Source: a virus. Taken from it: 39,698 bases of DNA. Under the pieces are notes generated by a model. The model saw only the letters and a list, made by a program, of their open reading frames with translations, had not been told where the DNA came from and ran no database searches. The stretch is taken from positions 1 to 39,698 of IMG/VR virus record IMGVR_UViG_3300021057_000023; one strand, 5' to 3'. The first letter of the stretch is position 1. Each line of letters starts with the position of its first letter. Positions 8,480 to 32,845 of the stretch are shown in pieces. A program made the position numbers and the translations under genes.

Positions 8480-8539
8480 GTCTCCCCCGTAAACGGGTTG
8501 AGCGACATGTAACACGGGCTTAGCGGCAATACCTTCAAT

Positions 8540-8579
8540 CATTGTAGCATATTATATACTCTACAATGCGTTAGCATTG
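8540..8579. promoter_or_regulatory. Operator-like nested inverted repeats in an AT-rich divergent promoter region
   Basis: CATTGTAG (8540..8547) is the inverted repeat of CTACAATG (8561..8568), and CAATGC (8564..8569) of GCATTG (8574..8579). TATACT and TATTAT -10-like hexamers lie between them. Confidence 0.5.
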
Positions 8580-14396: not shown

Positions 14397-14827
14397 ATGC
14401 TCAAGAAAGAAACAGCGAAGGTGCAGCGATCGCGAAGGGCAGGAAAACGGGCGGCAGGGACTTCGCCAAGGGCCAGTCGGGAAATCCGGCCGGCAGAGCG
14501 CCCATCCCGCCGGACCTGAAGGCGGTCAAGGCCCTCTCGGCCGACACCTTCAAGCGGCTCGCCACGGTCTACCTCGAGATGCCTTTCCCCGAGGTCGAGG
14601 CCACGGCCGAGGGCAACGGGCCGGCTCTGAACAAGCTGGTGGCGTCGATCATCGTCCAGGCCACCAAGTACGGGGACCACTCGCGGATGAACGCGCTCCT
14701 GGACCGGATCGTGGGCAAGGCGACGGACAAACTTGAGCTGACGCTGCCCGAGCCCTTCATCGTGCGGCGGCTGACGGGTGAGGAGGTCGTCATGGGAGCT
14801 AAGAAGCCCGACGAGGAGGCCTCGTGA
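14397..14827 (+). CDS. terS: Terminase small subunit-like protein (DUF5681-type GQSGNPxGR motif), apparently needing a -1 frame change
   Basis: FAKGQSGNPAGR is encoded at about 14462..14497 in the frame of ORF 14579..14827. That frame has no ATG, GTG or TTG upstream of 14579. ATG 14397 (MLKKETAKVQRSRRAGK) lies in the +1-offset frame. An ATG-only call would be 14579..14827. Confidence 0.55.
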
Positions 14828-15816
14828 CGCGGCTGTTCGAAGTCCGCCCCTACATCATCGCGGAAATCGGCTCCAACTGGCTCACCCTCTCCGACTGCCT
14901 CGAGTCGATCGCCAAGGCGAAGATGGTGGGCGCGGACGCGGTGAAGTTCCAGGCGTTCAGCCACGAGGCGCTGTACGGCTGGGACGACCGAAAGCTCGAC
15001 GCGCTCGGCTCGGTGGAAAGGCACCAGCTGCAGCTGACCTGGCTCCCGAAGCTCCGCGAGAAGGCCGACGCCTGCGGGATCGAGCTGGGCGTCACGGCGT
15101 TTAGCCCCGAGCTCGTGGCTGCGGTCGATCCCTACGTGGGGTGGCATAAGGTGGCGTCGAGCGACTGCGCGTGGCCGCAGCTGCTCGAGGCGGTGCGGCG
15201 GACCGGGAAGCCGGTCGTCATCAGCTTCGGGGCGCATGGGCGCGTGGACGTTGAGGAGGCCTTAAGGCGTCTCGAGGGCACGCCACGCGTGGCGATGTAC
15301 TGCGTCGCCGCCTACCCGGCCTACCACGTGGACCTCGCTGCCGGAGAGCTGTTCTACGAGATCCTTCCGCCCTACCGGCCCGACGAGCCCGTGGGCGTCG
15401 GCTTCTCCGACCACTCGCTCGGCACCGGGCTTGCGCTCGAGGCTGCGAGCCAGGGCTGCACCGTCATCGAAAAGCACGTCACCTTCATCGACGCCGACAC
15501 GCCCGACCGCCCGCACTCACTCGACGCCGACGGCTTCAAGCTGATGGTCGATACGATCCGGGGGAAGCGGGTGCCGACCTTGGGGCCGACGCCTGAGGAG
15601 AGGGCGATGGTGCTCCGTCATAACCGCAGGCTGATCGCCACCCGCGACGTCGCCCAGGGCGAGACGCTTCGCTACGGCGAGAACTTCGGCGCCTACCGCT
15701 CGCTCGAGGACGACTACCGCGGCCTCTCGCCATGGGCGTGGGAGCAGGTCGAGGGGAAGCGCGCCACCAAGGCGATCGCTAGGGGCAAGGGCGTGGGGCC
15801 GGGGGATTTTGAGTGA
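14824..15816 (+). CDS. neuB: NeuB-family nonulosonic acid synthase (sialic/pseudaminic/legionaminic acid synthase) with C-terminal SAF domain
   Basis: PYIIAEIGSNW, GADAVKFQ, WHKVASSD, GKPVVISFG, VGFSDHSLG and TVIEKHVTF follow the NeuB pattern. The C-terminal RRLIATRDVAQGETL...G is SAF-like. GTGA overlap with terS. Confidence 0.8.
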   Translation: MTRLFEVRPYIIAEIGSNWLTLSDCLESIAKAKMVGADAVKFQAFSHEALYGWDDRKLDALGSVERHQLQLTWLPKLREKADACGIELGVTAFSPELVAAVDPYVGWHKVASSDCAWPQLLEAVRRTGKPVVISFGAHGRVDVEEALRRLEGTPRVAMYCVAAYPAYHVDLAAGELFYEILPPYRPDEPVGVGFSDHSLGTGLALEAASQGCTVIEKHVTFIDADTPDRPHSLDADGFKLMVDTIRGKRVPTLGPTPEERAMVLRHNRRLIATRDVAQGETLRYGENFGAYRSLEDDYRGLSPWAWEQVEGKRATKAIARGKGVGPGDFE

Positions 15817-15911: not shown

Positions 15912-17234
15912 ATGCCTGAATGGCGCCCCCACAGCCCAAAGCAGGAGCGCGCGGTCTTCACCGACCGGCGGATCACGCTGCTCGCCACCGGTATCCAGTT
16001 CGGGAAAACCGCTGCCGGCGCCGTGCGGATGAAGATGGCCCTCCATACGCACACCGACCCGTCGGACGCCTTTCTCATCGTGGCGCCGACCTACAAAGTG
16101 ATGCAGCAGTCCACGCTCCCGGCGTTCCTGAACGTCATGCGAGGCTATGGGGAGTACTCGAAGGCCGACGCGGTCTTTGAGACCTCGTGGGGCACCAAGG
16201 TCTACTGCCGCACGACCTCCGACCCGGACGCCATCGTTGGCATTACGAACATTCGCGCCGTCTGGGCCGACGAGGCCGGGCTCATGAGCTTGTATGCGTG
16301 GGAGAACCTTCAGGCCAGAGCCGCCTTCAAAGAGGCGCCCATCGTCCTCACGACGAGTCCGTACACGCTGAACTGGGTCTTCTCGGAGATCATCCGCCCC
16401 CGGCAGAAGGACCCCGCAGCGCGCCCCGACGTCGAGCTGGTGCAGGCCCGCTCGGACGAAAATCCGTACTTCCCCAAAGAGGAGTACGAGCGCCGCAAGG
16501 CAACCATGGACCCCCGGCGCTTCCGGATGGTCTTCGGCGGCCAGTGGGAGAAGATGGAAGGCCTCGTCTACGACTGCTTCGACGACGACGAGAACGTCGT
16601 GGACCCCTTCCCGCTGCCCGCCGGCACCCGCTTCTACGGCGGGATCGACTGGGGCTATAACCCGGACCCCTTCGTCCTCCTGATCCGGGCTGTGACGCCT
16701 GACGGCAAGCACTTCGAGGTCTCCGAGCACTATCAGACGGGGCTCACGCCCTCGCAGATGGTCTCGCTGGTGCAGCAAAAGCGCCAGGTCTGGGGCGTGA
16801 GGCAGTTCTTCTGCGACCCGAGCCAGCCAGGCCTCATCGCCGAGCTCAATCGCCACGGGTGCGTCGCCACCGGGGCCGACAACGACATCCTGGTGGGCAT
16901 CGGCCGGCACTATGAGCTCGTGAAGACCCGCCGCTACCGGGTCTTCAGAGGGGCGTGCCCGCACCTACTCGACGAGCTGTCGATGTATCATTACCCTGAG
17001 CCCCAAGATCTAAAGCCCGACCAGAATCCCAAAGAGCCAAAGCCCGTGGACCAGCACAATCACGCGGCCGACGCCATGCGCTACGTGACCATGGGGACCT
17101 GGAACCTAGCCGGCGAGCGGCGGCCCATCGTGCCGAGCGGCGAGGGCGGCCGGCCCAAGCCCGAAGAAGACCAGTTCAAGCGCATCGAGAGACTAAAGCG
17201 CCGCTCGGCTCGGGGCGGTTTGGAGGAGTGGTGA
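15912..17234 (+). CDS. terL: Terminase large subunit
   Basis: Walker A-like ATGIQFGKT, Walker B VWADEAG and nuclease-domain motifs GIDWGY and HAADAMRY. Confidence 0.9.
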   Translation: MPEWRPHSPKQERAVFTDRRITLLATGIQFGKTAAGAVRMKMALHTHTDPSDAFLIVAPTYKVMQQSTLPAFLNVMRGYGEYSKADAVFETSWGTKVYCRTTSDPDAIVGITNIRAVWADEAGLMSLYAWENLQARAAFKEAPIVLTTSPYTLNWVFSEIIRPRQKDPAARPDVELVQARSDENPYFPKEEYERRKATMDPRRFRMVFGGQWEKMEGLVYDCFDDDENVVDPFPLPAGTRFYGGIDWGYNPDPFVLLIRAVTPDGKHFEVSEHYQTGLTPSQMVSLVQQKRQVWGVRQFFCDPSQPGLIAELNRHGCVATGADNDILVGIGRHYELVKTRRYRVFRGACPHLLDELSMYHYPEPQDLKPDQNPKEPKPVDQHNHAADAMRYVTMGTWNLAGERRPIVPSGEGGRPKPEEDQFKRIERLKRRSARGGLEEW

Positions 17235-17913: not shown

Positions 17914-19839
17914 ATGGACATGGGGCCGCGTGGCCCTCGAGATGGAGCCCGCCAGATGCTAGACGAGCACGCCCCCAGGACCGGCCCCGAGGACGAGAAA
18001 AAGCCCGCCCAAGAGGCCTGGGAGGGGACGCCGGCCGAGCGAAAGCTGGTCAAGCGGCTCAAGAAGAAGTTCGAGGAGGCCAAGAAGCACAAGAGCCTCT
18101 TCGACGCCAATTGGCTCACCTACTACAAGATGTACCGCGGCCGGCAGTGGGAGACGATGCGCCCCTCCTACCGCCACGGCGAGGTCGTAAACTTCATCTT
18201 TCAGAACGCCCAGAGCATGGTGCCGATCATGCTCGACACGAGGCCCAAGTTCGAGTTCATGGCGACCGAGCCGACCGACCGCGAGTTTGCCGAGATCATG
18301 AACGACCTGGCGGCCTCGGACTGGGAGAAAAAGGGCTGGATGGGCGTTCTGACGGAAGTGGCGTTCGACGGCTGGCAGTACGGCTCTGGCCTCTCTCGCA
18401 TGAAGTACGACCCCGAGGCCGGCCAGGGCTTAGGCGAGATCGACTACCGCTCGGCCGACCCGTTCTACTGCTTTCCCGACCCGGATAGCTCCAAGGTGAA
18501 CGACGAGGACCCCTTCGTCGGCTCCGACTACTTCTGCTACGCGCAGCCGGTCTCCCTTCGGAAGCTGAAAAAGGCCTTCCCGAAGTACGCCAAGTACATG
18601 AAGGCCGACCTGGTCGATCTCACGAGCGACACCAAGCACGACGTGACGCCGCTTCGGATTCGCTCGCCGATCGACAACCGCTCGGTGGTCGAGACGACGG
18701 CCGAGACGGAGTTTCAGCTCCGCGACAAGGCGCTCATGATCGAGATGGTCTGGCGCTGCGACGAGATCGAAGAGATCGAGGTCCCAGGCGGTGTGGACGC
18801 CAACGGCGCGCCCGTGCCGCCGGTCTATGAGCAGCGGCTTAAGTACCCCAACGGCCGCTACACGGTGATCGTCAACGACATCCCCGTCTTTGACGGCCCA
18901 GCGCCCTTGGAGGACGGGACCTTCCCGTGGCAGAAGTTCGACAACTACGTGCTCCAGCGCGAATTCTGGGGCGTGTCGGAGGTCGAGAACCTCAAGAGCC
19001 CGCAGCAGGTCTTCAACAAGCTCGTCTCCTTCTCGCTCGACGTCCTGGCGCTGATGGGCAACCCCATTTGGCTGAACCCCTTTGACTCAGGCGTCGAGGA
19101 CGACCAGCTTGAGAACCGCACGGGCCTCGTCATCCCGCACAACCGCGAGGCGCCGCCGCAGCGGATCGAGGGGGTAAACCTCCAGCCGTGGGTGAGCCAG
19201 TTCATCGACAAGTTCGCCGACTGGTTCAACCAGGTGGGCGGCAGCCAGGACATCACGAGAGGCGTGAACCCCACGGGCGTCACCGCCGCGTCGGCCATCT
19301 CGAGCCTCCAGGACGCCGCGCAGACGAGAGTCCGCCAGAAGTCGCGGAATCTGGACCTCTACCTCCAGCAAGTCGGCCAGTGCTACGCCCAGCTCGTGAT
19401 GCAGCATTACTCGGCGCCCCGGGTTTTCCGGCTCACCGGCAAAGACGGCGCGCAGACCTACTTCAAAGCGCACATCTCCAAGGCCCAGGACGGGACGACC
19501 ATGCTCGTGAGAGAGACCTTCTCGCCCGAAGGCCTCTCGACCGGCATCCAGGAGTACGCGCTCAGAGGGAAGCTCGACGTTCGCGTCTCCACGGGCTCCT
19601 CGCTGCCGTTCAACAAGGCCGAAAAGCGCTCCCAGACGTTGGAGCTGTTCGACCGCGGCCTCATCGACCAGGAGGAGGCCTTGAAGCACGTCGACTGGCC
19701 GAATTACGAGGCCGTCCTGCAACGCATGCAGGCCGCCGCCGCTCAAGCCCAGGCCGCCGAGGCCGAAGCGGCGGCTATGAAAGCCGGCGGCAGCGGCGCA
19801 GCACCCGCTCCCTCAGCGCCGCCGCCACCGGCTGCCTAA
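17914..19839 (+). CDS. Portal protein
   Basis: 641 aa and just downstream of terL. N-terminal WLTYYKMYRGRQW motif, with an Ala-rich C-terminal tail. The start may instead be 17956. Confidence 0.75.
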   Translation: MDMGPRGPRDGARQMLDEHAPRTGPEDEKKPAQEAWEGTPAERKLVKRLKKKFEEAKKHKSLFDANWLTYYKMYRGRQWETMRPSYRHGEVVNFIFQNAQSMVPIMLDTRPKFEFMATEPTDREFAEIMNDLAASDWEKKGWMGVLTEVAFDGWQYGSGLSRMKYDPEAGQGLGEIDYRSADPFYCFPDPDSSKVNDEDPFVGSDYFCYAQPVSLRKLKKAFPKYAKYMKADLVDLTSDTKHDVTPLRIRSPIDNRSVVETTAETEFQLRDKALMIEMVWRCDEIEEIEVPGGVDANGAPVPPVYEQRLKYPNGRYTVIVNDIPVFDGPAPLEDGTFPWQKFDNYVLQREFWGVSEVENLKSPQQVFNKLVSFSLDVLALMGNPIWLNPFDSGVEDDQLENRTGLVIPHNREAPPQRIEGVNLQPWVSQFIDKFADWFNQVGGSQDITRGVNPTGVTAASAISSLQDAAQTRVRQKSRNLDLYLQQVGQCYAQLVMQHYSAPRVFRLTGKDGAQTYFKAHISKAQDGTTMLVRETFSPEGLSTGIQEYALRGKLDVRVSTGSSLPFNKAEKRSQTLELFDRGLIDQEEALKHVDWPNYEAVLQRMQAAAAQAQAAEAEAAAMKAGGSGAAPAPSAPPPPAA

Positions 19840-20258: not shown

Positions 20259-21221
20259 ATGCTCATGCCCGAATCCGGCCCCGAGGACAGCAGCTTCGAC
20301 GCCGACAGCTTTCTGTCGACGCTCTCCGGTCCGTCCTCCCACATTCAAGACGACGCGCCGCCCTCCGACGAGGAGCCCGGTGCTGATACCGCTCCTCCGC
20401 AAACGCCTGAGACGTCCGGCTCCCAGGCTCCGGCGACTTCCGCACCAAAGACGCCGGAGCCGTTTCAGGGGCTAGAGTTCGACGCCGCCGGCAAGCGCGT
20501 CCAAGTGCCATTTGCCGACCCGCGCGTCAAGCAGTGGGTCGCCCAGGGCTACGACTACGCCCAGCGCATGGCGGCCTTCAAGCAGGAGCAGCAGGCGTGG
20601 GAGGCCCAAAGGCAGGGCTACTCCAAGTACGCCGAGATCGACCAGTTCGTTAAGTCCGACCCCCGCGGCAAAGACTGGCTCGAGCACGTCAACCGCGCCT
20701 GGGAGCAGCGTGAGCAGCTCCTCGCCAATGGCCAGCTTGACCCAGTGAAGGCGACCGTGGAGCAGCTCGTTCAAGAGCGGCTGGCGCCCTTCCAAAAAGA
20801 CCTCGAGGCACGGCAGGCAGCCGAGCGCGAGGCGAAGATTCAGCACGAAAACGAGGCTCTCGACCAGGAGATCAAGTCCATCCGCGACCAGTTCGCGGAT
20901 CTAGACTGGGATGCTCCCGGCCAAGACGGTCTCTCGCTAGAGCTGCGCGTTCTGAAGCATGCCAACCAAAACGGCATCAACTCGTTTCGCGCCGCCTTCC
21001 GGGACCTGATGGCCGACGACTTGGTGAAGAGAGCCGAGGCCCGCGGCAAGGAGGCCGCGGCGAAAGAGATCCAGGCCACAAAGCGCCAGGGACTACTTGG
21101 GACTTCCCGAGCTCCCACCAAGGGCGAGCTTCAGACGGCCGCGGATCGCCGGGGAAAGAGCCTTCGGGACCTCACGCGTGAGGGCCTGGACGAGCTCGGC
21201 ATTCAAATCGACGGCCTATAA
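20259..21221 (+). CDS. Scaffolding protein (putative)
   Basis: Acidic, Q/E/A-rich helical protein immediately upstream of the capsid gene. Confidence 0.55.
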   Translation: MLMPESGPEDSSFDADSFLSTLSGPSSHIQDDAPPSDEEPGADTAPPQTPETSGSQAPATSAPKTPEPFQGLEFDAAGKRVQVPFADPRVKQWVAQGYDYAQRMAAFKQEQQAWEAQRQGYSKYAEIDQFVKSDPRGKDWLEHVNRAWEQREQLLANGQLDPVKATVEQLVQERLAPFQKDLEARQAAEREAKIQHENEALDQEIKSIRDQFADLDWDAPGQDGLSLELRVLKHANQNGINSFRAAFRDLMADDLVKRAEARGKEAAAKEIQATKRQGLLGTSRAPTKGELQTAADRRGKSLRDLTREGLDELGIQIDGL

Positions 21222-21227
21222 GGGGGG

Positions 21228-22160
21228 ATGGGCGCCATGGCGCTTACCTGGAACCAAGTCAATGCGCTGACCGAGAAGAAGTGGCTTCCGAAACTGGTCG
21301 ACAACATCTTCGACTCCGACCCGCTTCTGGCGCGCTCGAAGTCGGAGGGCTGGTACACGAAGGAGGACGGCGGCACCTCCATCATGCAGCCGCTCCTCTA
21401 CGCCTCGCTCACCGCCGCCGGCTGGTATCAGGGGGCCGACACCCTGTCCACCGCCGACAATGAGACCTTCACGGCGGCCGAGTTCGCCTGGAAGCAGCTC
21501 TACGTCAACGTCACGATCTCGCGCCGTGACGAGCTGATCAACTCGGGCGACGCCGCCAAGATCAAGCTGGTGGAGAGCAAGCTTCAGGTCGCCGAGAAGA
21601 CCATGAAGGACTACCTGGGCGACGGCCTCTACAACGCCGGCACCGACTCCAAGGCGATCGGCGGCCTGCGCCACATCGTCTCGACGTCGAACACGGTGGG
21701 CGGCATCGCCCAGGGGACCTATTCGTGGTGGCAGGCCGAGGTCGATTCGTCGACCACGACGCTCACCCTCTCGGCCCTTCAGACCATGGACTCCAACCTC
21801 ACCATCGACGGCGAGGGGCCGACGGTCTGGATCGCGACCCGGGCCAACTACAACCGGCTCTACGCGCTCCTGCAGCCGCAGCAGCGGTTCGTGGACCAGA
21901 AGACGGCCAAGGCCGGCTTCACGAGCCTGATGTTCAACGGCAAGCCGTACATCGTCGGCTCCAAGGTCCCGGCCAACTACATCTTCGCGCTCAACGAGAA
22001 GTACCTGAAGCTGGTCGCCCACAAAGACGAGGACATGCGTATGAGCAAGTTCCTCGACTTCACCAACCAGAACGCCCGGACGGCCAAGCTTTACTGGATG
22101 GGTAACCTCACCAGCTCCAACAACCGCATGCACGGCGTCTTCAGCGCCGTCGCCGCCTAA
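21228..22160 (+). CDS. Major capsid protein
   Basis: 310 aa, follows the scaffold gene and precedes the decoration gene. The sequence looks typical of HK97-fold capsid proteins (..FNGKPYIVGSKVPANYIFALNEKYLKL..). Confidence 0.75.
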   Translation: MGAMALTWNQVNALTEKKWLPKLVDNIFDSDPLLARSKSEGWYTKEDGGTSIMQPLLYASLTAAGWYQGADTLSTADNETFTAAEFAWKQLYVNVTISRRDELINSGDAAKIKLVESKLQVAEKTMKDYLGDGLYNAGTDSKAIGGLRHIVSTSNTVGGIAQGTYSWWQAEVDSSTTTLTLSALQTMDSNLTIDGEGPTVWIATRANYNRLYALLQPQQRFVDQKTAKAGFTSLMFNGKPYIVGSKVPANYIFALNEKYLKLVAHKDEDMRMSKFLDFTNQNARTAKLYWMGNLTSSNNRMHGVFSAVAA

Positions 22161-22172
22161 GGAGGTACCCCC

Positions 22173-22655
22173 ATGACCGTCTACGCGCAAAACGCGGGCG
22201 CTTGGTTCGACTCGGTCTCGATGGTGACGGCGACGCTGGGCACCAATGACCCGGAAGTTGGCACGGTGCGCCGCGAAGGGGACGAGGAGTACCTCTTCGT
22301 CTACAACACCGGCTCCAACGCCCAGATCAGCCCCGGCTACGTGGCCACGGTCTCGGCCGTCACCGGTTACTCGGTCACCGTCTCGACGACGACGATGATC
22401 GACCACCCGGTGGGCGTCTGTAAGCACGCCACGATCACGACGGGCGCCTACGGCTGGCTCCTCCGCTACGGCTTCGGCACGGCGAAGATGCCCGCCAACT
22501 CCGGCTGTGCGGCGGGTCAACTGCTCACGGTGGGCGCCGACGGCGTCTCGGCCGTGAAGTCGATCTCCACCGACGCGCCGGGGATCGTCTACGGCAAGGT
22601 TATGGAAGCGACCGGCTCGGCCGGCGTCGCCACGGCCTTCTTCAAGTTCTTCTGA
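22173..22655 (+). CDS. Head decoration protein (DUF2190-like, putative)
   Basis: It follows the capsid gene. PVGVCKHATITTGAYGWLLRYG....AAGQLLTVGADG fits the decoration/cement protein pattern. Confidence 0.45.
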   Translation: MTVYAQNAGAWFDSVSMVTATLGTNDPEVGTVRREGDEEYLFVYNTGSNAQISPGYVATVSAVTGYSVTVSTTTMIDHPVGVCKHATITTGAYGWLLRYGFGTAKMPANSGCAAGQLLTVGADGVSAVKSISTDAPGIVYGKVMEATGSAGVATAFFKFF

Positions 22656-22672: not shown

Positions 22673-23689
22673 GTGGTCAAAAAGGCCGAGGTCTACCTTA
22701 GCTACCAGGGGCTCATCTCAGAGCCCCCGGTGGCCCGCAGCGCCCTCTACAGCCAGGCGTGCTCCAACGACGGCGTCACGATCTCCTCGTGGCGGCCGAC
22801 TTGGATCAAGCACGCCAAGGCCAACAAGAAGCGTTTCGGGTCGTTTAAGGACCACTCGCTAGGCCAGCTTTGGGGGAAGGGACTTTACCGCCCGGCGATC
22901 ATCGCCGGCGCGGGACCTTCCCTCAAAGGCAACGCGCATCTGCTGAAAGACCGAGGCGAGGGCATCCCGCTCGTCTCGTGTCTGCACAACTTCCACTACC
23001 TCGAGGACTTGGGCTGCCCGGCGGACTACTACGTCTCGCTGGACGCCGGCGAGGTCGTGGTCGAGGAGGTTTCCGAAGGCGGGCAGCGCTCGGCCGACGA
23101 GTATTGGGCGCTGACGAAGGATCGGACGCTGATCTGCTACATCGGGACTCACCCCGAGCTCCTCGAGAAGTGGCAGGGCCGGATCCTGTTCTTCAACTGC
23201 CCCGTGCCGGACGACGAGCTGAAGAAGGCCCTCTCGGAGATCGAGACCTTCGGCTGCCACGTCTCCAACGGCGGCAACGTGCTCGGGGCCTGCCTCTACA
23301 TCGCCAAGGGGTATCTCGGGGCCTCTGACATCGTCTTCGTGGGGGCGGACTTCTGCTTCTCCTACGATCACAAGTTCCACGCCTGGGACTCCAAGTACGA
23401 CAAGCACCTTGGCCACTGCGTGAGCCTCACCGACGTCTACGGCGTGCGGCGGCTCACCTGGCAGTCCTATGCCAACTTCAAGGCGTGGTTCGACCACATC
23501 GCTTTGACGGTCCCCGGGACCTGGGTGAACGCCACCGAGGGCGGCTGCCTTGGGTCCTACCCGACCGGGAACCTTGCGGCCTTCAAGTACATGGACCTAG
23601 CCGACGTCTTCAAGACCTGGCGCATGCTGGAACATACGCGCAAGCAGGCCTTCGAGCCCGAGGCCGACGACAAAACCATCCTCTTCTAA
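22673..23689 (+). CDS. maf: Maf-like DUF115 (MAF_flag10) protein: putative nonulosonic-acid glycosyltransferase
   Basis: PAIIAGAGPSLKGNAHLLKD...PLVSC...GCPADYYVSLD and GGNVLGACLYIAKGYLGASDIVFVGADFCFS match the two conserved DUF115 blocks of motility-accessory-factor proteins. Confidence 0.65.
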   Translation: MVKKAEVYLSYQGLISEPPVARSALYSQACSNDGVTISSWRPTWIKHAKANKKRFGSFKDHSLGQLWGKGLYRPAIIAGAGPSLKGNAHLLKDRGEGIPLVSCLHNFHYLEDLGCPADYYVSLDAGEVVVEEVSEGGQRSADEYWALTKDRTLICYIGTHPELLEKWQGRILFFNCPVPDDELKKALSEIETFGCHVSNGGNVLGACLYIAKGYLGASDIVFVGADFCFSYDHKFHAWDSKYDKHLGHCVSLTDVYGVRRLTWQSYANFKAWFDHIALTVPGTWVNATEGGCLGSYPTGNLAAFKYMDLADVFKTWRMLEHTRKQAFEPEADDKTILF

Positions 23690-23701: not shown

Positions 23702-23977
23702 ATGGCCTGGACCGTGACCCGGTATCCGACCGTCTTCGGGAACAAGGCCGCCGTGGGTCTGAAGCTCACCGCCGACGCGGCGACGCAGACCATCGAGACG
23801 GGCCTTAAGACCATCGAGTGGTACGCGCTTGGTACCTTCAACTCCATGGCGAGCCAGACCGGCCGCTACATCTACATCAACAGCAACGCCTCGGGCGTGC
23901 AGTCCCACGGCGTCCTGGGCTGCTCGGGCTTTGCCGCGGGCGACGACGTCTACGTCACCGTCTTCGGCACGCGGTGA
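23702..23977 (+). CDS. Hypothetical virion-module protein (91 aa)
   Basis: GGGAGG upstream; lies in the late operon. Confidence 0.65.
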   Translation: MAWTVTRYPTVFGNKAAVGLKLTADAATQTIETGLKTIEWYALGTFNSMASQTGRYIYINSNASGVQSHGVLGCSGFAAGDDVYVTVFGTR

Positions 23978-23983
23978 CGCGCC

Positions 23984-24334
23984 ATGCCGCACCGCGGACT
24001 AAAGACCTTCACGGTCACCATGGCCTCGGGCGAGAGCCTGACGGCCGCCTTTCAGCCGGGCGGGCCGTGGTCGGCCGTCTATGCGCTCATCCCGAGCTTC
24101 TCGACGAACGCCGCCGTCGAGGTCTTCGGGTCTAACGACGGGACGACCTACAACCGGGTCATGCACCCGCCCATCAACTCGTCCACGGTCGGCACCAACG
24201 CCTTCGTCGTCGCCTCGGGCGTCACGGGCTGGGTACCGATCCATCCGGCCGGAGCCTTCTACTCGGTGAAGCTCCATGCCACCGGCGCGGTCGCCAACGG
24301 CGCCGAATTCAAGATCATCTGCGCGCAAAGCTAG
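23984..24334 (+). CDS. Hypothetical virion-module protein (116 aa)
   Basis: ORF in the late operon with high third-position GC. Confidence 0.65.
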   Translation: MPHRGLKTFTVTMASGESLTAAFQPGGPWSAVYALIPSFSTNAAVEVFGSNDGTTYNRVMHPPINSSTVGTNAFVVASGVTGWVPIHPAGAFYSVKLHATGAVANGAEFKIICAQS

Positions 24335-24342
24335 GAGAGCCG

Positions 24343-24771
24343 ATGCCACTGGTCCGCGTTTGGAACGACAACGTCCACCCCTTCCGCCAGACCTTCAAGG
24401 GCGAGGAGATCGCCATCCCGCCGCGGTCTTTCATCATGATGGACCGCGAGGAGGCGATTCAGTTCAAGGGGACCTTCTCGCCCATCGAGAGAGACGGCGG
24501 CGGCGTGCCGCTGCCGACCTCCTACAAGATGATCCGGGTCGAGAGGACGCCGCCGTCGCCAGAGGAGCGCGAGGCCGTCGAGGCGCAGCACGTGAACCCG
24601 GTCACTGGCCGGCGTTTTGCCACCAAGGCCGAACTCGAAGCTGACCTGAAGGCCTACGCCACCGAGCACCCGGACGCCGTGGCGCATGACGCCGAGGCCG
24701 AAGCTGAGATCAAGGCGCAGGTGCCGCGGCGCGGCCCAGGCCGCCCCAAGAAGGCCGAGGTGCCGCAGTGA
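24343..24771 (+). CDS. Hypothetical virion-module protein (142 aa)
   Basis: AGGAGAG upstream; lies in the late operon. Confidence 0.65.
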   Translation: MPLVRVWNDNVHPFRQTFKGEEIAIPPRSFIMMDREEAIQFKGTFSPIERDGGGVPLPTSYKMIRVERTPPSPEEREAVEAQHVNPVTGRRFATKAELEADLKAYATEHPDAVAHDAEAEAEIKAQVPRRGPGRPKKAEVPQ

Positions 24772-25223
24772 GCGATTCGGGCTTCATCAAGGTCTACGGC
24801 CGGTGGACGAAGACGCTCACCGGCCCGGACGGCGCCGTTAAGGCGCAGCTTGAGGGCCCGAACGTCGTCACCACGGTCGGGAAGGAATTCCTGGCGAGCT
24901 TCCTCTACTCGGCCGCCGCCGCGGCGTCGACCTTCACCGCGAAGTACGTGGCGATTGGCACCGACGCCACGGCCGAGGCCGTGGGCAATACGAGCCTTGG
25001 GACCGAGCTGGCGCGCCATACGGGCACCGTCTCCTACATCTCGGGCGCCATCTACCGCGTCACGGCGACGTTCGCGGCCGGCACCGGCACCGGCGCCATC
25101 GTCGAGTACGGGCTTCTCTCGTCCTCGACGGGCGGGACCTTGCTCGCGCGCGACACGGAGTCGGTCATCAACAAGGGCGCCTCGGACACCCTCACCGTGC
25201 AGGCCAACTTCACCTTCTCATGA
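24768..25223 (+). CDS. Virion structural protein (tail-collar/fibre-like beta pattern, putative)
   Basis: GTGA overlap. The pattern VTTVGKEFLA....AIGTDATAEAVGNTSLGTELAR.......IVEYGLLSS..GGTLLAR is reminiscent of tail-collar-type proteins. Confidence 0.5.
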   Translation: MSDSGFIKVYGRWTKTLTGPDGAVKAQLEGPNVVTTVGKEFLASFLYSAAAAASTFTAKYVAIGTDATAEAVGNTSLGTELARHTGTVSYISGAIYRVTATFAAGTGTGAIVEYGLLSSSTGGTLLARDTESVINKGASDTLTVQANFTFS

Positions 25224-25229
25224 TGGGCC

Positions 25230-25625
25230 ATGGCGGATTTCAGCGTCACGATCAACAACTCCATCAATTCGTGGGGGCCCGCCCCCTCGAACAAGTGGGG
25301 CGCGTGGAACTGGAACGCCTTCAAGTGGGGCGAGGGGACGCACGACCTCACGACCGAAACGGTCAAGGTCTCATCTGAGACCCTCTCGCTGAGCCAGTCC
25401 CTCTCGCTCGCCGCCGACTTCGTCATCTCGCTCGCGAACTCCGTCGCCTCCGCCGAGGACCTGGGCTCCGAGGTCCTCCGCTCCGGCTCCTACTCCTACG
25501 TCTTCCCCTCGAACGTGACCGACGGCGAGAGCCGGTCGTTTGCCACCTGGACCTCGGGCTCCGTGGCGTCGGTCACCTGGACCTCGGGCACGGCCACCTC
25601 AACCTCGTGGAGTAGCGCCGCATGA
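25230..25625 (+). CDS. Ser/Thr/Trp-rich virion-module protein (131 aa)
   Basis: The C-terminus contains repeated TWTSG motifs: FATWTSGSVASVTWTSGTATSTSWSSAA. Confidence 0.6.
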   Translation: MADFSVTINNSINSWGPAPSNKWGAWNWNAFKWGEGTHDLTTETVKVSSETLSLSQSLSLAADFVISLANSVASAEDLGSEVLRSGSYSYVFPSNVTDGESRSFATWTSGSVASVTWTSGTATSTSWSSAA

Positions 25626-26251
25626 CGCCGCTCGAGATCGAGACCATGGCGCGCCAGCGCTACAACGCCGTCGGCGACAGCTTTTGGGCGTCGACCGAGA
25701 TGATGGGCCTCATCTGGCAGGCCTGCCAGGAGCTGGCCAGAGAGGCGAAGTGCATCCGGCGCGTCTTCACGACGACGACTGTGGCAGGCACCCGCGAGTA
25801 CGCCTTCCCGACCAACGTCACCGCCATCAAGCGGATCATCTACAACGGGATTCGCTTGGACGAGGTGCAGTTCACGGTCGATGACGACCTCACGAGCTTC
25901 TACGAGACGACGACGAACCAGGGCCCGCCGGAGACCTTCGTCCAGTGGAACGAGACGCTCTATCTCAGGCCCATCCCCGACGGCGCCTACACGCTGAAAA
26001 TCTATGGGTACTGCGAGCCGCAGGAGGTCACCTCGACTTCGACGCTCGAGGTTCCGACTGAGTACCATCAAGGCCTCTGCGACTACCTCAATATGATGAT
26101 GGCGGCCAAGGATAAGAACCTCCAGGCCGCCCAGTGGTTCGAGAAGCGCTGGGACCTCACCAAGGCCAAGGCCGTCCGCCAGGAGCGGGCGAAATACCGG
26201 GGCGGAAACCTCATCTCGGTCTATGACGCCGAAGGCTGGCTGTCGCGGTGA
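25622..26251 (+). CDS. Head-tail adaptor / tail tubular protein A-like (putative)
   Basis: 209 aa, directly upstream of a large beta-rich tail protein. Position and size match T7 gp11-type adaptors. Confidence 0.4.
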   Translation: MTPLEIETMARQRYNAVGDSFWASTEMMGLIWQACQELAREAKCIRRVFTTTTVAGTREYAFPTNVTAIKRIIYNGIRLDEVQFTVDDDLTSFYETTTNQGPPETFVQWNETLYLRPIPDGAYTLKIYGYCEPQEVTSTSTLEVPTEYHQGLCDYLNMMMAAKDKNLQAAQWFEKRWDLTKAKAVRQERAKYRGGNLISVYDAEGWLSR

Positions 26252-28149
26252 GGCGTGACGGCTACAACGTCGTCTTCCCCCCCGACGGCCGGCAGGCCTT
26301 CGACGGCGGCATGAACTCGAAGTTCGAGCGGGCGCTGATCGCTCCGAACGAGAGCCCGGACTGCCAGAACGTCGTCTTTGCCAACGGCGCGGTGGCCACG
26401 AGAGAGGCGGCGACCCAGCTCAACACGACGGCCGTGGGCTCGTTCGTCTGCGACGGCATCTACACGCGGCGCGCCAATACGGGCGCTGAGACCATGGTCG
26501 CCTGGTTCGGCGGCACGGCCTGGAACCTCACCGGCACGTCGACCTTCGCCACGATCGCCTCGGCGCAGTCGGTCTACACGGCTGGCCAGCGCGTGGGGGC
26601 GGCGCAGTACGAGAACCACATCTTTTTCGGCAACGGCGGCACGCTCCCCTACAAGTGGAACGGCACCGATTTCACCCGCCACGGCGTCTATCCGCCGACC
26701 CAGACGGCGACAGCGGCGAGCATCGCCGGAACGCTCTCGGGCGATCAGTCCTACAAGATGACCTACGTCAACAGCCAGCTCGCCGAAAGCGACCTGGGGC
26801 CGGCGACGACGTTCTCGGTCACGGCCACGGGCGGCGGCGTGCGCCTTTCCTCTCTGCCGGTGGCGCCGCAGAGCTTCGGCGTCTCCAGCCGGCGCATCTA
26901 CCGCTACGACTCTGGCTCCTATAAGCGCGTCGGCACCATCGGCGACAACACGACGACGACGTTTGACGACGCGGGCGCGACGGCCGGCGCCACCGCCCCC
27001 ACCGACAACGGCGTACCGCCGCTCTGGCGCGTGGCCGTGGCCCACCAAGACCGGCTCTTCATGATCGATGCCACGACCCCCAACCAGGTCTGGTACTCGA
27101 ACCTGGGCGAGCCGTACACGGTGGCCTCCACCAACTTCGACACCTTCGGCGACGCCTCGGCCGATCTGCCGAAGGCGCTCGAGGTCTACGACAACTCGCT
27201 GGTCGTCATCTGCGAGAACAGCCAGTGGGTCTGGTACATGCCGTCCACGACGGTCTCCGACTGGCGCAAGGTCAAGGTCCGCTCCTCCTACGGCAGCCGC
27301 TCCCCTTACGGCGCCGCCCAGGTCGACGGCGGCGTCATGTTCCCGGCCATCCAGAACAGCAAGCTCGTGGGCTTTGGCGTCGTCTCTGGCGACACCTTGC
27401 AGCCGTCGACGACCCTTCTCACCGTCTCGGCCATGCAGTCGGATCTGGCGTCGGACCGGATCGAGCCCGAGATCTTCGACATCCAAGAGGCCTACGTCTC
27501 GAACATCTCGGCCTTCGTCTTTAGGAACAAGGCCTATCTGGCCGTCACCTACGGCTCGGGCGCGACGACCAACAACCGCGTCTTCGTCTACGACTTCTCG
27601 GTGCAGCGTCTGAACAAACCGCAGCGCGCCGCCTGGACCATCTACAAGGGCGCCAACGCCGCCCAGTTCACGGTCTATGACGGGAAACTGTACTTCGGCT
27701 CGGCCACGGCCAACGGCCTCGTCTACCGGCTCGAGCACGAGTCGGTCTACACGGACGCAGGCTCGGCGGCGATCGACAGCTACTTCTGGACGAAGGAATT
27801 CGCGGGGCTCAAGGGCCACGAGAACCTCGAGAAAGACTTCCGCTGGGCCAAGGTCTTGGTCGACATGGCCGGCGCCTACTACATGACGATGCGCTACCGC
27901 ACCGACTCCGACTCGGGCGATGGCCAGTCGGTGCAGCTCTCGCTCAACCCCGGCTCGATGATTTGGGGGACGGGCGTCTGGGGGCAATCAACCTGGGGCT
28001 CGGGCTCGACGCAGAAAGAGATCTCGGTGCCTCTGGGGCAGTGCCGGGGAAAACGCATCCAGTTCCAGTTCTCCAACCAAAACACCGCGGGCCAGCGCTT
28101 TAAGGTCCACGGCCTCAACTTCACCTACAACGTCAAAGGGGAGCGCTGA
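26248..28149 (+). CDS. Tail tubular protein B / nozzle-like structural protein (putative)
   Basis: 633 aa with a beta-propeller-like repetitive pattern. Its position matches T7 gp12. Confidence 0.45.
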   Translation: MRRDGYNVVFPPDGRQAFDGGMNSKFERALIAPNESPDCQNVVFANGAVATREAATQLNTTAVGSFVCDGIYTRRANTGAETMVAWFGGTAWNLTGTSTFATIASAQSVYTAGQRVGAAQYENHIFFGNGGTLPYKWNGTDFTRHGVYPPTQTATAASIAGTLSGDQSYKMTYVNSQLAESDLGPATTFSVTATGGGVRLSSLPVAPQSFGVSSRRIYRYDSGSYKRVGTIGDNTTTTFDDAGATAGATAPTDNGVPPLWRVAVAHQDRLFMIDATTPNQVWYSNLGEPYTVASTNFDTFGDASADLPKALEVYDNSLVVICENSQWVWYMPSTTVSDWRKVKVRSSYGSRSPYGAAQVDGGVMFPAIQNSKLVGFGVVSGDTLQPSTTLLTVSAMQSDLASDRIEPEIFDIQEAYVSNISAFVFRNKAYLAVTYGSGATTNNRVFVYDFSVQRLNKPQRAAWTIYKGANAAQFTVYDGKLYFGSATANGLVYRLEHESVYTDAGSAAIDSYFWTKEFAGLKGHENLEKDFRWAKVLVDMAGAYYMTMRYRTDSDSGDGQSVQLSLNPGSMIWGTGVWGQSTWGSGSTQKEISVPLGQCRGKRIQFQFSNQNTAGQRFKVHGLNFTYNVKGER

Positions 28150-29000
28150 TGGCCATGCCGGCAGCTCAAGCCCAAGGCCCCGACGAGTTCGAGCTCGCCA
28201 GACGGCGCGCGCAGCAGCAGGTCACCGCCGCGACGCAGGCCAAGACCGACGCCATCAAGCGCCGCATGTCGGCCGCTGGGGCGCTGAACTCCGGGGCGGC
28301 GATCAAGCAGGAGCAGATCGCCCATGACGAGGGCCAGCAGCAGCTCCAGCAGGCCACCGAGCAAGTGGACGCAGCCGAGCGGGCGGAGTTTCGCCGCCGG
28401 CGTGAGGTGCAGGAGGGGCGGGACTTCGCGCGAAGCGAGCGGGAAGCGAGCCAGCAGTTCGCCTCGGGCGAGACGGCGCTGGCGCGCCGCTTCCAGGAGC
28501 AGATGCAGGGCAAGCAATTTGACTTCACGCGCGGCGAGCGCGAAGCCGGGCAGACCTTCCAAGCGGGCCAGCTCGAAAAGCAGATGGGCCAGCAGGCCGA
28601 GCAGTTCAAGGCCGACCTTGACAGCCGCATGAAGATCGCCGCCGACCAGATCGCGGCGCAGGAGCGGCAAGGCCAACTCACTCGCGAGCAGGCCGCCAAG
28701 GCGCTTGAGGAGACCAGGCGCCAGTTCGACGCCGAGCTGCGCGAAAACATCAAGACCAACGTCGTCAACACGATCATCTCGGCCCACAACTCGAAGATGT
28801 CGCCCGACCAGATGAAGGGCCTCCTGGGCGGCCTGAACCTCGAAGGCCTCGGGCTCGACCTGGCGAGCCTGCTCAATGCCGCGCCCGCCGCCCCGCAGCC
28901 GCCGGCGATCCCGGGCGTGCCGACGCAGCCGCAGTTCGGGGCACCGATCCCCAACGGCAACTGGAACTACAACGCCGGCAACCCCAACCCCTACGGCTAA
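28149..29000 (+). CDS. Internal virion protein (Q/E-rich, with an internal repeat)
   Basis: DFARSEREASQQFASGE and DFTRGEREAGQTFQAGQ form an internal repeat. Position follows the nozzle gene. Confidence 0.5.
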   Translation: MAMPAAQAQGPDEFELARRRAQQQVTAATQAKTDAIKRRMSAAGALNSGAAIKQEQIAHDEGQQQLQQATEQVDAAERAEFRRRREVQEGRDFARSEREASQQFASGETALARRFQEQMQGKQFDFTRGEREAGQTFQAGQLEKQMGQQAEQFKADLDSRMKIAADQIAAQERQGQLTREQAAKALEETRRQFDAELRENIKTNVVNTIISAHNSKMSPDQMKGLLGGLNLEGLGLDLASLLNAAPAAPQPPAIPGVPTQPQFGAPIPNGNWNYNAGNPNPYG

Positions 29001-29012
29001 GGGAGACGACCA

Positions 29013-29411
29013 ATGGCCATTCGCGGAGTTCAGCCCGTCGCCGCCCAAGATCAGGTGACCGACTACAAGCCGGCGCGTCAGGGCGGAGGCAAAGCCGGTC
29101 AGATGGTCGGCGGCTTTCTCGGCGGCATCGCCGGCATCCCCGGCGGCCCGGCCGGTGTCATGGCGGGCGTCGCCACGGGCTCGAGCCTGGGCGGCGTCGT
29201 CGGCAATGCCATCTCGCCTGAAAAGGCCGCGTCGACGGCCATCGAGCGGCGGCTGCAATCAGCCGGCCCGCAGGTTCAGAGCTCGCCGCAGACCGAGCGC
29301 CTCAAGCAGTCGGTCCTGGCGCTACACCAGGCGCCGCCCGACATCAAAGCTGAGTACGCCGCGCCGCTCGTGAAGGCCTATATGGTCTCGGCCGCCAAGG
29401 ACTACGCCTAA
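29013..29411 (+). CDS. Glycine-zipper membrane-active internal virion protein (putative)
   Basis: GGFLGGIAGIPGGPAGVMAGVATGSSLGGVVG is a glycine-zipper stretch. Confidence 0.5.
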   Translation: MAIRGVQPVAAQDQVTDYKPARQGGGKAGQMVGGFLGGIAGIPGGPAGVMAGVATGSSLGGVVGNAISPEKAASTAIERRLQSAGPQVQSSPQTERLKQSVLALHQAPPDIKAEYAAPLVKAYMVSAAKDYA

Positions 29412-29426
29412 GGGAGCACCGCCGCC

Positions 29427-30602
29427 ATGGGTATCAACACCGTCTCGGTCGTCGGCCCGCGGGCTGAGCCACAGCAGCAGGAAAAGCCCAAGAAGGACAC
29501 CCTGGAGATGATTCTCCAGGGCCTCCAGATCGCCAACTCGGCCATGGGGATCGGCGCGAACTTCACGACGATCCAGAAGCACATGGACGAGCGGGCCGTC
29601 GCCCAGGATCTCCGCCAGGGCATCCTGTCGCAGAAGGACAAGGCGGCCCACCTGTCGACGCTCGAGAACGTCCCCGAGAACACGCCCGGCGCGACGCCGA
29701 TGAAGTATCGCGTGGCCGATGGCGACGAGCCGGGCGCCGTCGAGACCCTCTGGCAGATGGCCAAGAAGACGGAGCCCAAGGCGCCGGAGATGAAGACCCG
29801 GCTGGTCGAGACGAAGAGTCCGGACGGCAAACCGGTTCAGAAGATCGTCGAGGACAAGGTCGGCGCAGAGTTCCCTTCCTACGAGAAGCCCAAGGACACG
29901 GCCGTCGCCGACGCGAAGAAGGACGAGCGCCATAAGGCGGCCGTCGAGCGAGCGCAGGGGAAGCTGAATCAGGAACTCCTGAAGGTGCGCGAGGAGGTGA
30001 ACGTCGCCTCCCAGGTGCGCGAGATGGCGGAGCTGGGGAAGCTCAACCCCATCGCCGCCGCAAACCTTGGCTCCCGGCTGGCGCGCGCCAACGGCGAAAA
30101 GGGCGTCCTAACCGATAAGGACGTCGACCGCCACGGCGGCAGCCAAGCCCTTGCCGACAAGATCGCTCGCTACGTGAAGCGGGCCGAAGAGGGCACTCTG
30201 ACCGACGAGGACGCGCGCTTCTCGATCGAGATGGCCGATATGCTCGAGCGGTCTGCGAGGCAGAAGGAGACCCAAGTCTCCGAGCATTTCGTCCGCCAGT
30301 TCACGAGAAACTACGGCGGCGACTTCGCCGAAAACTACGGCGTGATCGTCGGCACCGATTACGAGCCTCCGGCGTCGACGCAGGCCCCGGGCGAGCCGCA
30401 GCGGAAGCCCGAAAGCGGCACGGCTTTCGCCGCGCCCGCGAGCGAGGGCCTCACGGTCCCCGTTCCCATGCGGGGCGCCACGGGTGTCGCGCCTAAGCCT
30501 ACGGCCGACGACCTCAAGGCGATGGACTGGGCGAAGCAGAATCCCAAGGATCCCCGCGCCCAGCAAATCCGGCAAACCCTCCAGGCGAAGGGGCTTCTCT
30601 AA
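29427..30602 (+). CDS. Internal virion / ejection protein (putative)
   Basis: 391 aa, K/E-rich and helical, located in the internal-protein block. Confidence 0.5.
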   Translation: MGINTVSVVGPRAEPQQQEKPKKDTLEMILQGLQIANSAMGIGANFTTIQKHMDERAVAQDLRQGILSQKDKAAHLSTLENVPENTPGATPMKYRVADGDEPGAVETLWQMAKKTEPKAPEMKTRLVETKSPDGKPVQKIVEDKVGAEFPSYEKPKDTAVADAKKDERHKAAVERAQGKLNQELLKVREEVNVASQVREMAELGKLNPIAAANLGSRLARANGEKGVLTDKDVDRHGGSQALADKIARYVKRAEEGTLTDEDARFSIEMADMLERSARQKETQVSEHFVRQFTRNYGGDFAENYGVIVGTDYEPPASTQAPGEPQRKPESGTAFAAPASEGLTVPVPMRGATGVAPKPTADDLKAMDWAKQNPKDPRAQQIRQTLQAKGLL

Positions 30603-32299: not shown

Positions 32300-32359
32300 T
32301 CCGGCTCATGTGATAGACATCACGAGCCGCAAACACTGTCCCGCCAAGGAGTACAAGCG

Positions 32360-32830
32360 ATGGGCAAGGGCTGGAAATCGACCGATACGATCGAGCAACG
32401 GTTCTACAAGTTCGTCGAGAAGACGGACGCCTGTTGGCTTTGGCGCGGCACCCTCGCGAACGTCGGCTACGGCTTTATGACCTTCCAGGGCAAGCGCCTG
32501 CAGACCCACCGCACGTCCTACGAGATGCACAAGGGACCGATCCCGGAGGGCATGTTCGTCTGCCATAAGTGCGACGTGCGGGCGTGCGTGAATCCAGACC
32601 ATCTCTTTCTCGGAACGATCCAGGACAACCGCGCCGACTGCGTTCAGAAGCGCCGCCATGGGCACGGCGACACGCACGGCAATGCCAAGCTGTCCGCGAA
32701 TGACGTCATCACGATGCGGCGCCTGTTCGCTTCAGGGAAGTATACGAAAGCCGCTCTGGCTAGGCGCTTTGGCGTGACTCCACCGACGGCGCAAAAGGTC
32801 ATCGACAGAAAAAACTGGACACATCTCTAG
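32360..32830 (+). CDS. HNH homing endonuclease
   Basis: CWLWRG....GYGF......HRTSYEMHKGPIPEGMFVCHKCDVRACVNPDHLFLGTIQDNRADC is an HNH_3-type pattern, followed by a C-terminal HTH-like tail. AAGGAG lies upstream. Confidence 0.8.
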   Translation: MGKGWKSTDTIEQRFYKFVEKTDACWLWRGTLANVGYGFMTFQGKRLQTHRTSYEMHKGPIPEGMFVCHKCDVRACVNPDHLFLGTIQDNRADCVQKRRHGHGDTHGNAKLSANDVITMRRLFASGKYTKAALARRFGVTPPTAQKVIDRKNWTHL

Positions 32831-32845
32831 GGAAGGAGAGGGGCC

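Follow-up and report, generated by a model that had tools for sequence, protein, structure and literature searches.

The stretch of DNA considered here, called the window, comprises the 39,698 nucleotides (nt) of IMG/VR virus record IMGVR_UViG_3300021057_000023, which is a temperate-type podophage genome, and the gene of interest, located in its head-gene block (Table 1), encodes a Maf-like protein with a PF01973 domain (MptE-like, formerly DUF115/MAF_flag10). The open reading frame (ORF) starts with GTG, is preceded by a GAGG Shine-Dalgarno sequence 7 nt upstream, and has an N-terminus that coincides with those of more than 100 full-length homologs, and the long ORFs that overlap it on the other strand and in the other frames are the usual by-products of DNA with a G+C (GC) content of 66%. 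A hidden Markov model (HMM) search matches PF01973 to residues 61-231, scoring 78.9 bits (curated cut-off 34.6 bits) with E=5.2e-22, which is far beyond chance, so that membership of DUF115 stands. The preliminary description, made from the letters of the window, had noticed two conserved DUF115 blocks in the translation, and both are present, as AIIAGAGPSL...PADYYVSLD and GGNV...GASDIVFVGADF, although it had spelled the end of the first block PDYYVSLD and had counted 7 residues between GGNV and GA, where there are 12. Searches of PHROGs and NCBIfam with the protein gave no match, and phmmer of the single sequence against the Protein Data Bank (PDB) gave noise only, a family profile being required.

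With such a profile, including distant relatives, the Maf protein of Magnetospirillum magneticum (5mu5, its residues 259-438) was found among the PDB sequences with E=1.9e-20, and MptE (8sd5) with E=4.6e-11. An alignment-based AlphaFold2 model (predicted local distance difference test score, pLDDT, 93.2; predicted template modeling score 0.91) was compared with known structures by Foldseek, and its closest PDB fold is again 5mu5 (E=3.2e-9 over 259 columns, TM(query) 0.54), followed by the archaeal MptE pyrophosphokinase 8sd5 (E=6.3e-5); matches to 5bo9 and 5bo8, structures of the cytidine monophosphate (CMP)-sialic acid-dependent glycosyltransferase family 29 (GT29) sialyltransferase ST8SiaIII, have E-values from 3.4e-4 to 6.2e-4. 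The protein has the fold of the Maf central domain, a sialyltransferase-like Rossmann variant, and the proposal that it is a Maf/DUF115-type enzyme finds agreement between HMM, profile and fold.

The size of the protein was earlier taken to mean a compact phage version of Maf, and it is indeed equal to only the central region of the bacterial proteins (570-670 residues). An HMM search of 1.84 billion representatives returned 3672 relatives, the nearest of which have 300-420 residues, and in the homologs of bacterial Maf length (570-630 residues) the central positions of about 170-480 align to phage residues of about 33-333, which identifies the phage protein with the central part of bacterial Maf. 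Both flanking domains of the three-domain Maf architecture are therefore absent from the 338-residue protein. In bacterial Mafs the N-terminal flank is a Rossmann-like domain and the C-terminal one a helical domain similar to flagellin and FliS; Shewanella Maf-1 binds flagellin via a tetratricopeptide repeat (TPR) domain at its C-terminus, and Shewanella Maf-2 requires a separate small specificity factor, GlfM (PMC11339370; 10.1101/2023.12.03.569772). No Rossmann-like flank and no C-terminal helical or TPR domain is found in the phage protein, and because bacterial Mafs leave recognition of the acceptor to additional domains or to partner proteins, direct recognition would be plausible for a one-domain enzyme, perhaps via a clade-specific insertion together with conserved N- and C-terminal extensions.

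Several residues of bacterial Mafs are known to matter for function. E324 and D415 of M. magneticum Maf are reported as critical (preprint on CbMaf and GkMaf), D272 and D357 of C. botulinum CbMaf and D285 and N379 of G. kaustophilus GkMaf are required (same preprint), and a conserved serine, S334 in CbMaf and S356 in GkMaf, is essential in those two proteins (CbMaf/GkMaf preprint). Residues of the phage protein were mapped to these by HMM alignments to 5mu5, and conservation was scored in 33 members of the phage clade to which the window belongs. E324 corresponds to D124, which is invariant, and D415 corresponds to D226, which is aspartate in 29 members, asparagine in 3 and serine in 1, with GkMaf also having asparagine at this position; D124 and D226 are the predicted catalytic acidic pair. 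By alignment and by spacing, 23 residues before the second acidic residue, S334 of CbMaf (T392 in 5mu5) maps to N202 of GGNV. The 570-630-residue homologs have mostly serine at the equivalent position (GGSV), and other short forms have asparagine, histidine or cysteine. The phage enzyme is thus not a plain miniature of bacterial Maf, since the essential serine is an invariant asparagine in the clade. Motifs common to the phage protein and the long Maf homologs are GxGPSLxxN, PDxxxxxD, GGxV, GxDxxF, KxHA and NATEGG, of which the last two are C-terminal, Maf-specific, clade-invariant and located past the end of the alignment to the 241-residue MptE chain, and the short forms carry a clade-specific insertion, xLGSYPEGN, after EGG. 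Across hundreds of sequences the putative active-site motifs are invariant. These comparisons characterize the protein as a true member of the Maf family, although a divergent one in which one residue of the active site is notably replaced, and very probably as a CMP-nonulosonate-dependent transferase.

The gene lies directly after the genes for the major capsid protein (MCP) and a cement protein, as the preliminary description had it, with gaps of 12-17 nt on its two sides, and the number of terminator-like sites in the head block is not above chance. Portal, scaffold, MCP, a gene for a protein of about 155 residues, the Maf-like gene, five small genes and the adaptor follow one another in the same order in every related locus inspected. 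The order of MCP, cement protein and Maf-like gene is kept even in the distant locus L151 (32% GC, MCP 35% identical), where the Maf-like protein is 32% identical to the window copy (profile E=6.5e-33). No flagellin or flagellar genes are found in the window or in the related loci, the neighbors being MCP, cement protein and head-tail connector genes, and no folate or pterin genes are found in the window. Over 97 loci, the median identity to the window copy is 55.6% for the Maf-like protein, 54.5% for MCP, 49% for the large terminase (TerL) and 41% for the portal, and since its conservation equals that of MCP and exceeds that of TerL and portal, the Maf-like gene belongs to the core of these genomes under strong constraint and is not accessory.

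Table 1. Genes of the window discussed in the text (coordinates in nt; residue counts refer to the encoded proteins)
Feature	Position	Strand	Remarks
CI-like repressor	8159-8542	-	
ERF recombinase	9351-10109	+	
Integrase	13300-14385	+	
NeuB-family nonulosonic acid synthase with SAF domain	14824-15816	+	best named match PseI, below equivalog cut-off
Large terminase	15912-17234	+	
P22/SU10-type portal	17914-19839	+	
Probable scaffold	20259-21221	+	by position only; family searches gave no match
Major capsid protein (MCP, HK97-type)	21228-22160	+	phrog_9953, E=1.1e-55; alternative candidate acceptor
Capsid cement/decoration protein p160	22173-22655	+	160 residues; predicted top candidate acceptor
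Maf-like gene	22673-23689	+	338 residues, stop 23687-23689; short-form PF01973, putative CMP-nonulosonic-acid:protein transferase
Five small genes	23702-25625	+	
p151	24768-25223	+	151 residues; phrog_5417, function unknown, weak tail-fibre-like match; further possible acceptor
p131	25230-25625	+	131 residues, 32% Ser+Thr, Ser/Thr-rich C-terminus; further possible acceptor
SU10-type adaptor	25622-26251	+	
Tail genes	26248-33751	+	
p301, tail-fibre-like	32846-33751	+	conserved N-terminus, variable C-terminus, 26% Ser+Thr; further possible acceptor
Sugar cassette	34104-38320	+	
PseB/FnlA-like UDP-GlcNAc 4,6-dehydratase	34104-34997	+	Polysacc_synt_2, E=3e-76; best NCBIfam match PseB
Short Gfo/Idh/MocA-type NAD-binding oxidoreductase	34994-35617	+	207 residues; PF01408, E=1.4e-6
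Cytidylyltransferase, putative CMP-nonulosonic acid synthetase	35614-36345	+	CTP_transf_3, E=1.5e-14; GTG start
HemL-like class-III pyridoxal phosphate-dependent aminotransferase	36342-37553	+	in place of PseC/LegC; Aminotran_3, E=2e-44
GNAT N-acetyltransferase	37550-38320	+	best named match PseH, below cut-off; GTG start
NlpC/P60 protein, probable endolysin	38870-39334	+	

Databases have no proper name for this large family. A collection of 5.8 billion proteins contains 1524 homologs of the Maf-like protein at E<=1e-3, and the best 120 are 336-359 residues long, 57-99% identical and nearly all full-length, with many of them on contigs of 35-40 kb, the size of a whole phage genome; the database names given to the family are only "MptE-like" or "hypothetical". 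At least 147 copies of the gene are present in IMG/VR. Among the 50,697 deposited phage genomes of INPHARED, the gene and its neighborhood gave no DNA match and no tblastn match, and a scan of 185,579 bacterial and archaeal species genomes in GTDB located the gene on 3 short contigs of metagenome-assembled genomes (MAGs) only, from which it follows that the clade is uncultured. The Maf-bearing loci range from 36 to 67% GC, and so the clade infects diverse hosts. The CI-like repressor, ERF and integrase of the window indicate a temperate lifestyle, yet in the species genomes the Maf-like gene occurs on those 3 MAG contigs, and no integrated prophage carrying the clade gene was seen among them. 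A search for a distant subgroup of short forms in viral contigs returned mostly the same clade and was set aside, with only L151 being informative. Fold matches to the Maf model in BFVD are unannotated "MptE-like" or DUF115 proteins of 200-700 residues in many uncultured Caudovirales and in a giant virus, ChoanoV1, where GT29-like proteins are present too; judged by these predicted structures, Maf-like enzymes encoded by viruses may extend far beyond this clade.

The protein encoded immediately upstream of the Maf-like gene, p160, had been called a putative decoration protein, and both its family and its fold bear this out. PF09956 ("Phage cement protein") matches 11 of 34 p160 family members, with a best E of 1e-5 and with the window copy below detection; the family as a whole comprises 321 homologs. 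The p160 model (pLDDT 79) matches phi29 gp8.5, a head-fibre base (9e-5), and Pam3 (2.5e-4) in Foldseek, with further matches to the decoration or cement proteins of HFTV1, TW1, T1, FCWL1, BB1 and XM1. Searches of the PDB sequences with p160 and p151, both as single sequences and as profiles, gave no match, and it was the fold search that succeeded for p160. The p160 alignment contains a conserved Ser/Thr-rich strand, S61-x-V-T/S-G-Y-S67-V-T69-V-S71-S/T-T-T, in which hydrophobic residues separate the invariant S67, T69 and S71. In L151 the corresponding gene encodes a 165-residue protein homologous to p160 (hhalign probability 93.5%) in which the strand reads TGYTVKVDTT, and because a homolog of p160 and a Maf-like gene are kept together there, the pairing of cement protein and Maf is old and maintained.

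Other structural proteins are candidates as well. The clade's most conserved protein is p151, with a median identity of 64%, above that of the capsid protein, and a Ser+Thr content of 24.5%. The smaller p131 could be a glycosylation target or a fibre-like appendage, and its C-terminus consists of TWTSG-like repeats (SVTWTSGTATSTSWS). The tail-fibre-like p301 completes the list. Both p131 and p301 had also been named in the preliminary description, beside p160 and MCP, where head proteins were put forward as candidate acceptors.

The donor sugar would be made by enzymes of the phage itself. The preliminary description had taken a sugar pathway to be present, and the window does contain six such enzymes, which are tightly linked to the Maf-like gene across the clade and which together are predicted to form a divergent, pseudaminic acid-like nonulosonate pathway. 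Relative to the canonical pseudaminic pathway (PseB, C, H, G, I, F), the Gfo/Idh/MocA oxidoreductase is an extra component. The five genes of the cassette at 34104-38320 are joined by 4-nt GTGA/ATGA overlaps, with GTGA read at 34994, 35614 and 37550 and the overlap at 36342 deduced from the ORF coordinates, and these shared overlaps suggest translational coupling. A 462-residue ORF at 34957-36345 was considered as a fusion of an unknown domain with the cytidylyltransferase and was rejected, as its first residues, about 220 in number, are an out-of-frame, Arg/Pro/Gly-rich artefact of high GC that is common only to a near-identical contig; a PseG-like domain was also sought in this ORF, and the region instead holds the ORF of the oxidoreductase.

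As to linkage, a NeuB homolog is present in 26 of the 30 loci that have at least 9 kb upstream of the Maf-like gene. All well-covered Maf contigs carry the cytidylyltransferase, the aminotransferase and the GNAT protein, and most also carry PseB and NeuB. When IMG/VR was probed with the aminotransferase, nearly all of the 36 loci recovered had the structural genes of this clade. Four loci, L001, L062, L086 and L091, appeared to have Maf without NeuB; the case of L086 (contig 3300021062_000086) was dismissed as a circular permutation with the cassette at the start of the contig, and for the other three NeuB is not in the parts of the contigs seen. In the window, the NeuB-like synthase gene lies between integrase and terminase, at a distance of about 18 kb from the other pathway genes, and the protein is only about 70% identical to the copy of the near-identical contig, with a central stretch of about 220 nt that fails to align. 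An unrelated contig of 57 kb (L149, IMGVR_UViG_3300003690_002946) encodes homologs of NeuB, PseB, the cytidylyltransferase and the aminotransferase, and no structural genes of the clade and no Maf match occur in the 20.9 kb of it that were seen, so the nonulosonate pathway may circulate in other phage types too.

Further observations concern the more variable parts of these genomes. The contig that is near-identical to the window, UViG_3300020215_000094 in IMG/VR, matches the flanks of 28530-32824 at 98.9% and 94% identity, and unlike these flanks the interval itself has no DNA match to it. The interval contains the C-terminal part of a 283-residue protein, tail proteins of 132, 391 and 565 residues and an HNH endonuclease, and it looks like a recent swap of a tail-fibre or host-range module, to which the HNH gene at 32360-32830 may be linked. 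Upstream of the terminase, the relative L001 (576-2878) has a gene for a 3'-phosphoadenosine 5'-phosphosulfate (PAPS)-reductase/DUF3440 protein and the relative L003 (1-650) a gene for a C5 cytosine DNA methyltransferase, and both relatives have ParB-like proteins in this region; all of these are absent from the window.

From these elements a mechanism can be proposed in which, late in infection, the six-gene phage pathway would start from a UDP-HexNAc and yield a 5,7-diamino nonulosonic acid of the pseudaminic type in CMP-activated form, by means of the PseB-like dehydratase, the oxidoreductase, the class-III aminotransferase, the PseH-like GNAT protein, the NeuB/PseI-like synthase and the cytidylyltransferase. 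The Maf-like enzyme would be co-transcribed with the head genes and would bind the CMP-sugar via its GxGPSL / GGNV / GADF core, and with D124 and D226 acting as the catalytic acidic pair it would attach the sugar to hydroxyl groups of Ser/Thr residues in a virion protein, either ahead of assembly or in the course of it. The likeliest acceptor would be the adjacent cement protein, through the S67/T69/S71 strand, or MCP, with the tail-fibre-like proteins as second choices, and the benefit to the phage would be a negatively charged glycan coat on the particle. Membership of the family and fold, the kept acidic residues, the core status of the gene, its place in the gene order and its link to the pathway are results of the comparisons, while the donor, the catalysis, the acceptor and the benefit are inferred from them.

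The overall reading, in which a phage-made CMP-nonulosonic acid is put on virion Ser/Thr residues by a one-domain Maf-family transferase, is one that we favor by a modest degree, and several observations weigh against it. The named pathway matches all lie below the NCBIfam equivalog cut-offs (233 bits against 408 for PseB, 64 against 93 for PseH and 118 against 340 for PseI), the cytidylyltransferase is identified at the Pfam level only, no PseG/LegG-type hydrolase was found among the window ORFs, and the aminotransferase is of the class-III HemL-like type, not the DegT/PseC/LegC type usual in nonulosonate pathways, for which reasons the sugar may be non-canonical or steps of the host may be needed. 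In one contig of the clade no PseB or NeuB match is present in the 90% of it that was seen. In the transferase, the essential serine of the GGSV motif is not kept, N202 being asparagine in all 33 clade members. The genome also has a repressor and an integrase, and its sugar genes are placed like morons, beside the integrase and behind the tail genes, an arrangement that would fit a lysogenic conversion of the host surface as well. As for the acceptor, that it is a virion protein of some kind seems somewhat more likely than not; that it is a head protein, whether cement protein or MCP, is somewhat less likely than not, its basis being adjacency, gene order and the conserved Ser/Thr strand.

The most serious competing explanation keeps the nonulosonate transferase and moves its acceptor to the host cell, to flagellin, pilin, S-layer or a surface glycan, with receptor masking, superinfection exclusion or lysogenic conversion as the outcome. 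The gene set is of the temperate type (integrase, CI-like repressor, ERF), the location of the sugar genes adjoining the integrase and downstream of the tail genes is that of a conversion module, the characterized Mafs all act on flagellin, and the fold also resembles glycan-directed sialyltransferases. The Maf-like gene itself, however, is not in a moron position and sits inside the head-gene block with its narrow gaps, and its conservation is that of a core gene and on a par with MCP, while genes for conversion tend to vary. The C-terminal or TPR domains that bind flagellin are absent, the order of MCP, cement protein and Maf persists from 32 to 67% GC and thus in very different hosts, and the near-absence of the gene from 185,579 bacterial and archaeal genomes implies that lysogens are rare or absent, which together make a host acceptor unlikely.

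Much less probable still are two explanations that would change the nature of the reaction. One would make phage DNA the acceptor, with a CMP-ulosonic acid used on a hydroxymethylated base as an anti-restriction hypermodification, and it draws on phage glycosyltransferases reported to decorate 5-hydroxymethylcytosine with a sugar that was assigned as the ulosonic acid Kdo, and on the cytosine methyltransferase of L003 and the PAPS-reductase/DUF3440 protein near the terminase of L001. The reported DNA glycosyltransferase has a GT-B fold, though, and the same paper mentions neither MptE nor nonulosonic acids; Pfam detects no cytosine methyltransferase, TET-like dioxygenase, dCMP/dUMP hydroxymethylase or phage DNA polymerase among the window ORFs tested, and the Maf-like gene lies among head genes, not replication genes, so we consider this very improbable. 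We give equally little credence to the idea that the protein is no glycosyltransferase at all, and is instead either a pyrophosphokinase like MptE or a factor for structure or assembly that has kept the fold and lost catalysis. PF01973 is named after the archaeal MptE kinase, MptE 8sd5 is the second-best fold match, and the serine essential in bacteria is replaced by asparagine; but the E-values for Maf are 4 to 9 orders of magnitude better than those for MptE, the Maf-specific KxHA and NATEGG motifs are invariant beyond the stretch that aligns to MptE, both catalytic acidic residues are conserved, and the invariance of the putative active-site motifs in hundreds of sequences argues for catalysis. 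The genetic context, moreover, lacks folate and pterin genes and is instead linked to a CMP-sugar pathway.

The preferred reading, that of a phage-encoded nonulosonate transferase acting on the virion, can be set beside several known systems. The bacterial Mafs (5mu5, CbMaf, GkMaf, Shewanella Maf-1 and Maf-2) share with the phage protein the PF01973 core and the fold, the motifs, both essential acidic residues and the genetic linkage to a CMP-nonulosonate pathway. They differ in length (about 570-670 residues against 338), in having flanking domains, in the serine that is asparagine in the phage, and in lacking the xLGSYPEGN insertion after EGG; the phage gene also differs in its location in a head block without flagellar genes, because of which a virion protein is the predicted acceptor. 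Archaeal MptE, a 6-hydroxymethyl-7,8-dihydropterin pyrophosphokinase (8sd5), belongs to the same Pfam family and has a Rossmann-like core with a GxGPS loop, but it is a much weaker match than Maf, and its alignment stops before the phage C-terminal half that contains KxHA and NATEGG.

To our knowledge, descriptions of glycosylated phage virions are so far confined to some mycobacteriophages and to ordinary sugars, and systems of the Che8, Corndog and Myrna type were reportedly the subject of work by Freeman et al. in 2023. In these, conventional GT-A/GT-B enzymes reportedly use host nucleotide sugars to add hexose-type sugars. The mycobacteriophage enzymes are likewise phage-encoded glycosyltransferases that modify the phage's own capsid and tail proteins, whereas the present system would use a Maf-type enzyme, a predicted nine-carbon, sialic acid-like acid and a donor pathway encoded by the phage. 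"Capsid glycosylation" in mycobacteriophages is also mentioned in PMC12363180. The spike protein VP4 of the archaeal virus HRPV-1 bears legionaminic acid (PMC6137143), which is a likeness in that a nonulosonic acid is on a structural protein of a prokaryotic virus, as is predicted here; the difference is that the HRPV-1 glycan is N-linked and is made and attached by the host, the virus encoding neither the pathway nor the transferase (PMC6137143). With the decoration proteins (PF09956; phi29 gp8.5 base, Pam3, HFTV1, TW1, T1) p160 shares the fold and, weakly, the family, and unlike those proteins the p160 of this clade has an invariant S-x-T-x-S strand and is paired with a Maf-like gene. We know of no evidence that decoration or cement proteins are glycosylated. 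A search of full-text literature for a phage Maf, for DUF115 in phage head or structural modules, and for nonulosonate put on virions by phage enzymes found none, the closest precedents being the mycobacteriophage and HRPV-1 systems. What is new is therefore a known enzyme family and a known pathway in a new architecture, and, if the predicted acceptor is correct, a new class of acceptor.

The reading extends beyond the window to a widespread, uncultured podophage clade with genomes of about 36-40 kb, which may make a CMP-sialic acid-like sugar and O-glycosylate its cement protein or capsid with a single-domain Maf, a possibility that we place just under even. If it is true, the clade would be the first known case of bacteriophages that "sialylate" their own particles, and its Maf the first with an acceptor other than flagellin. 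The particle would then have a new, negatively charged, sialic acid-like surface chemistry, for which possible roles are colloidal stability, escape from non-productive adsorption or from grazing, and interactions with immune factors or lectins. Maf enzymology is poorly understood, as the preliminary description had remarked, and the proteins are large and multi-domain; a well-folding 338-residue one-domain version with an adjacent candidate acceptor is a tractable model that could separate catalysis from acceptor recognition and that also probes the replacement of serine by asparagine. The phenomenon may be broader than the clade, given that the fold search in BFVD shows further unannotated "MptE-like" viral proteins in uncultured phages and a giant virus, and in so large and unnamed a family a correct assignment would re-annotate thousands of viral proteins.

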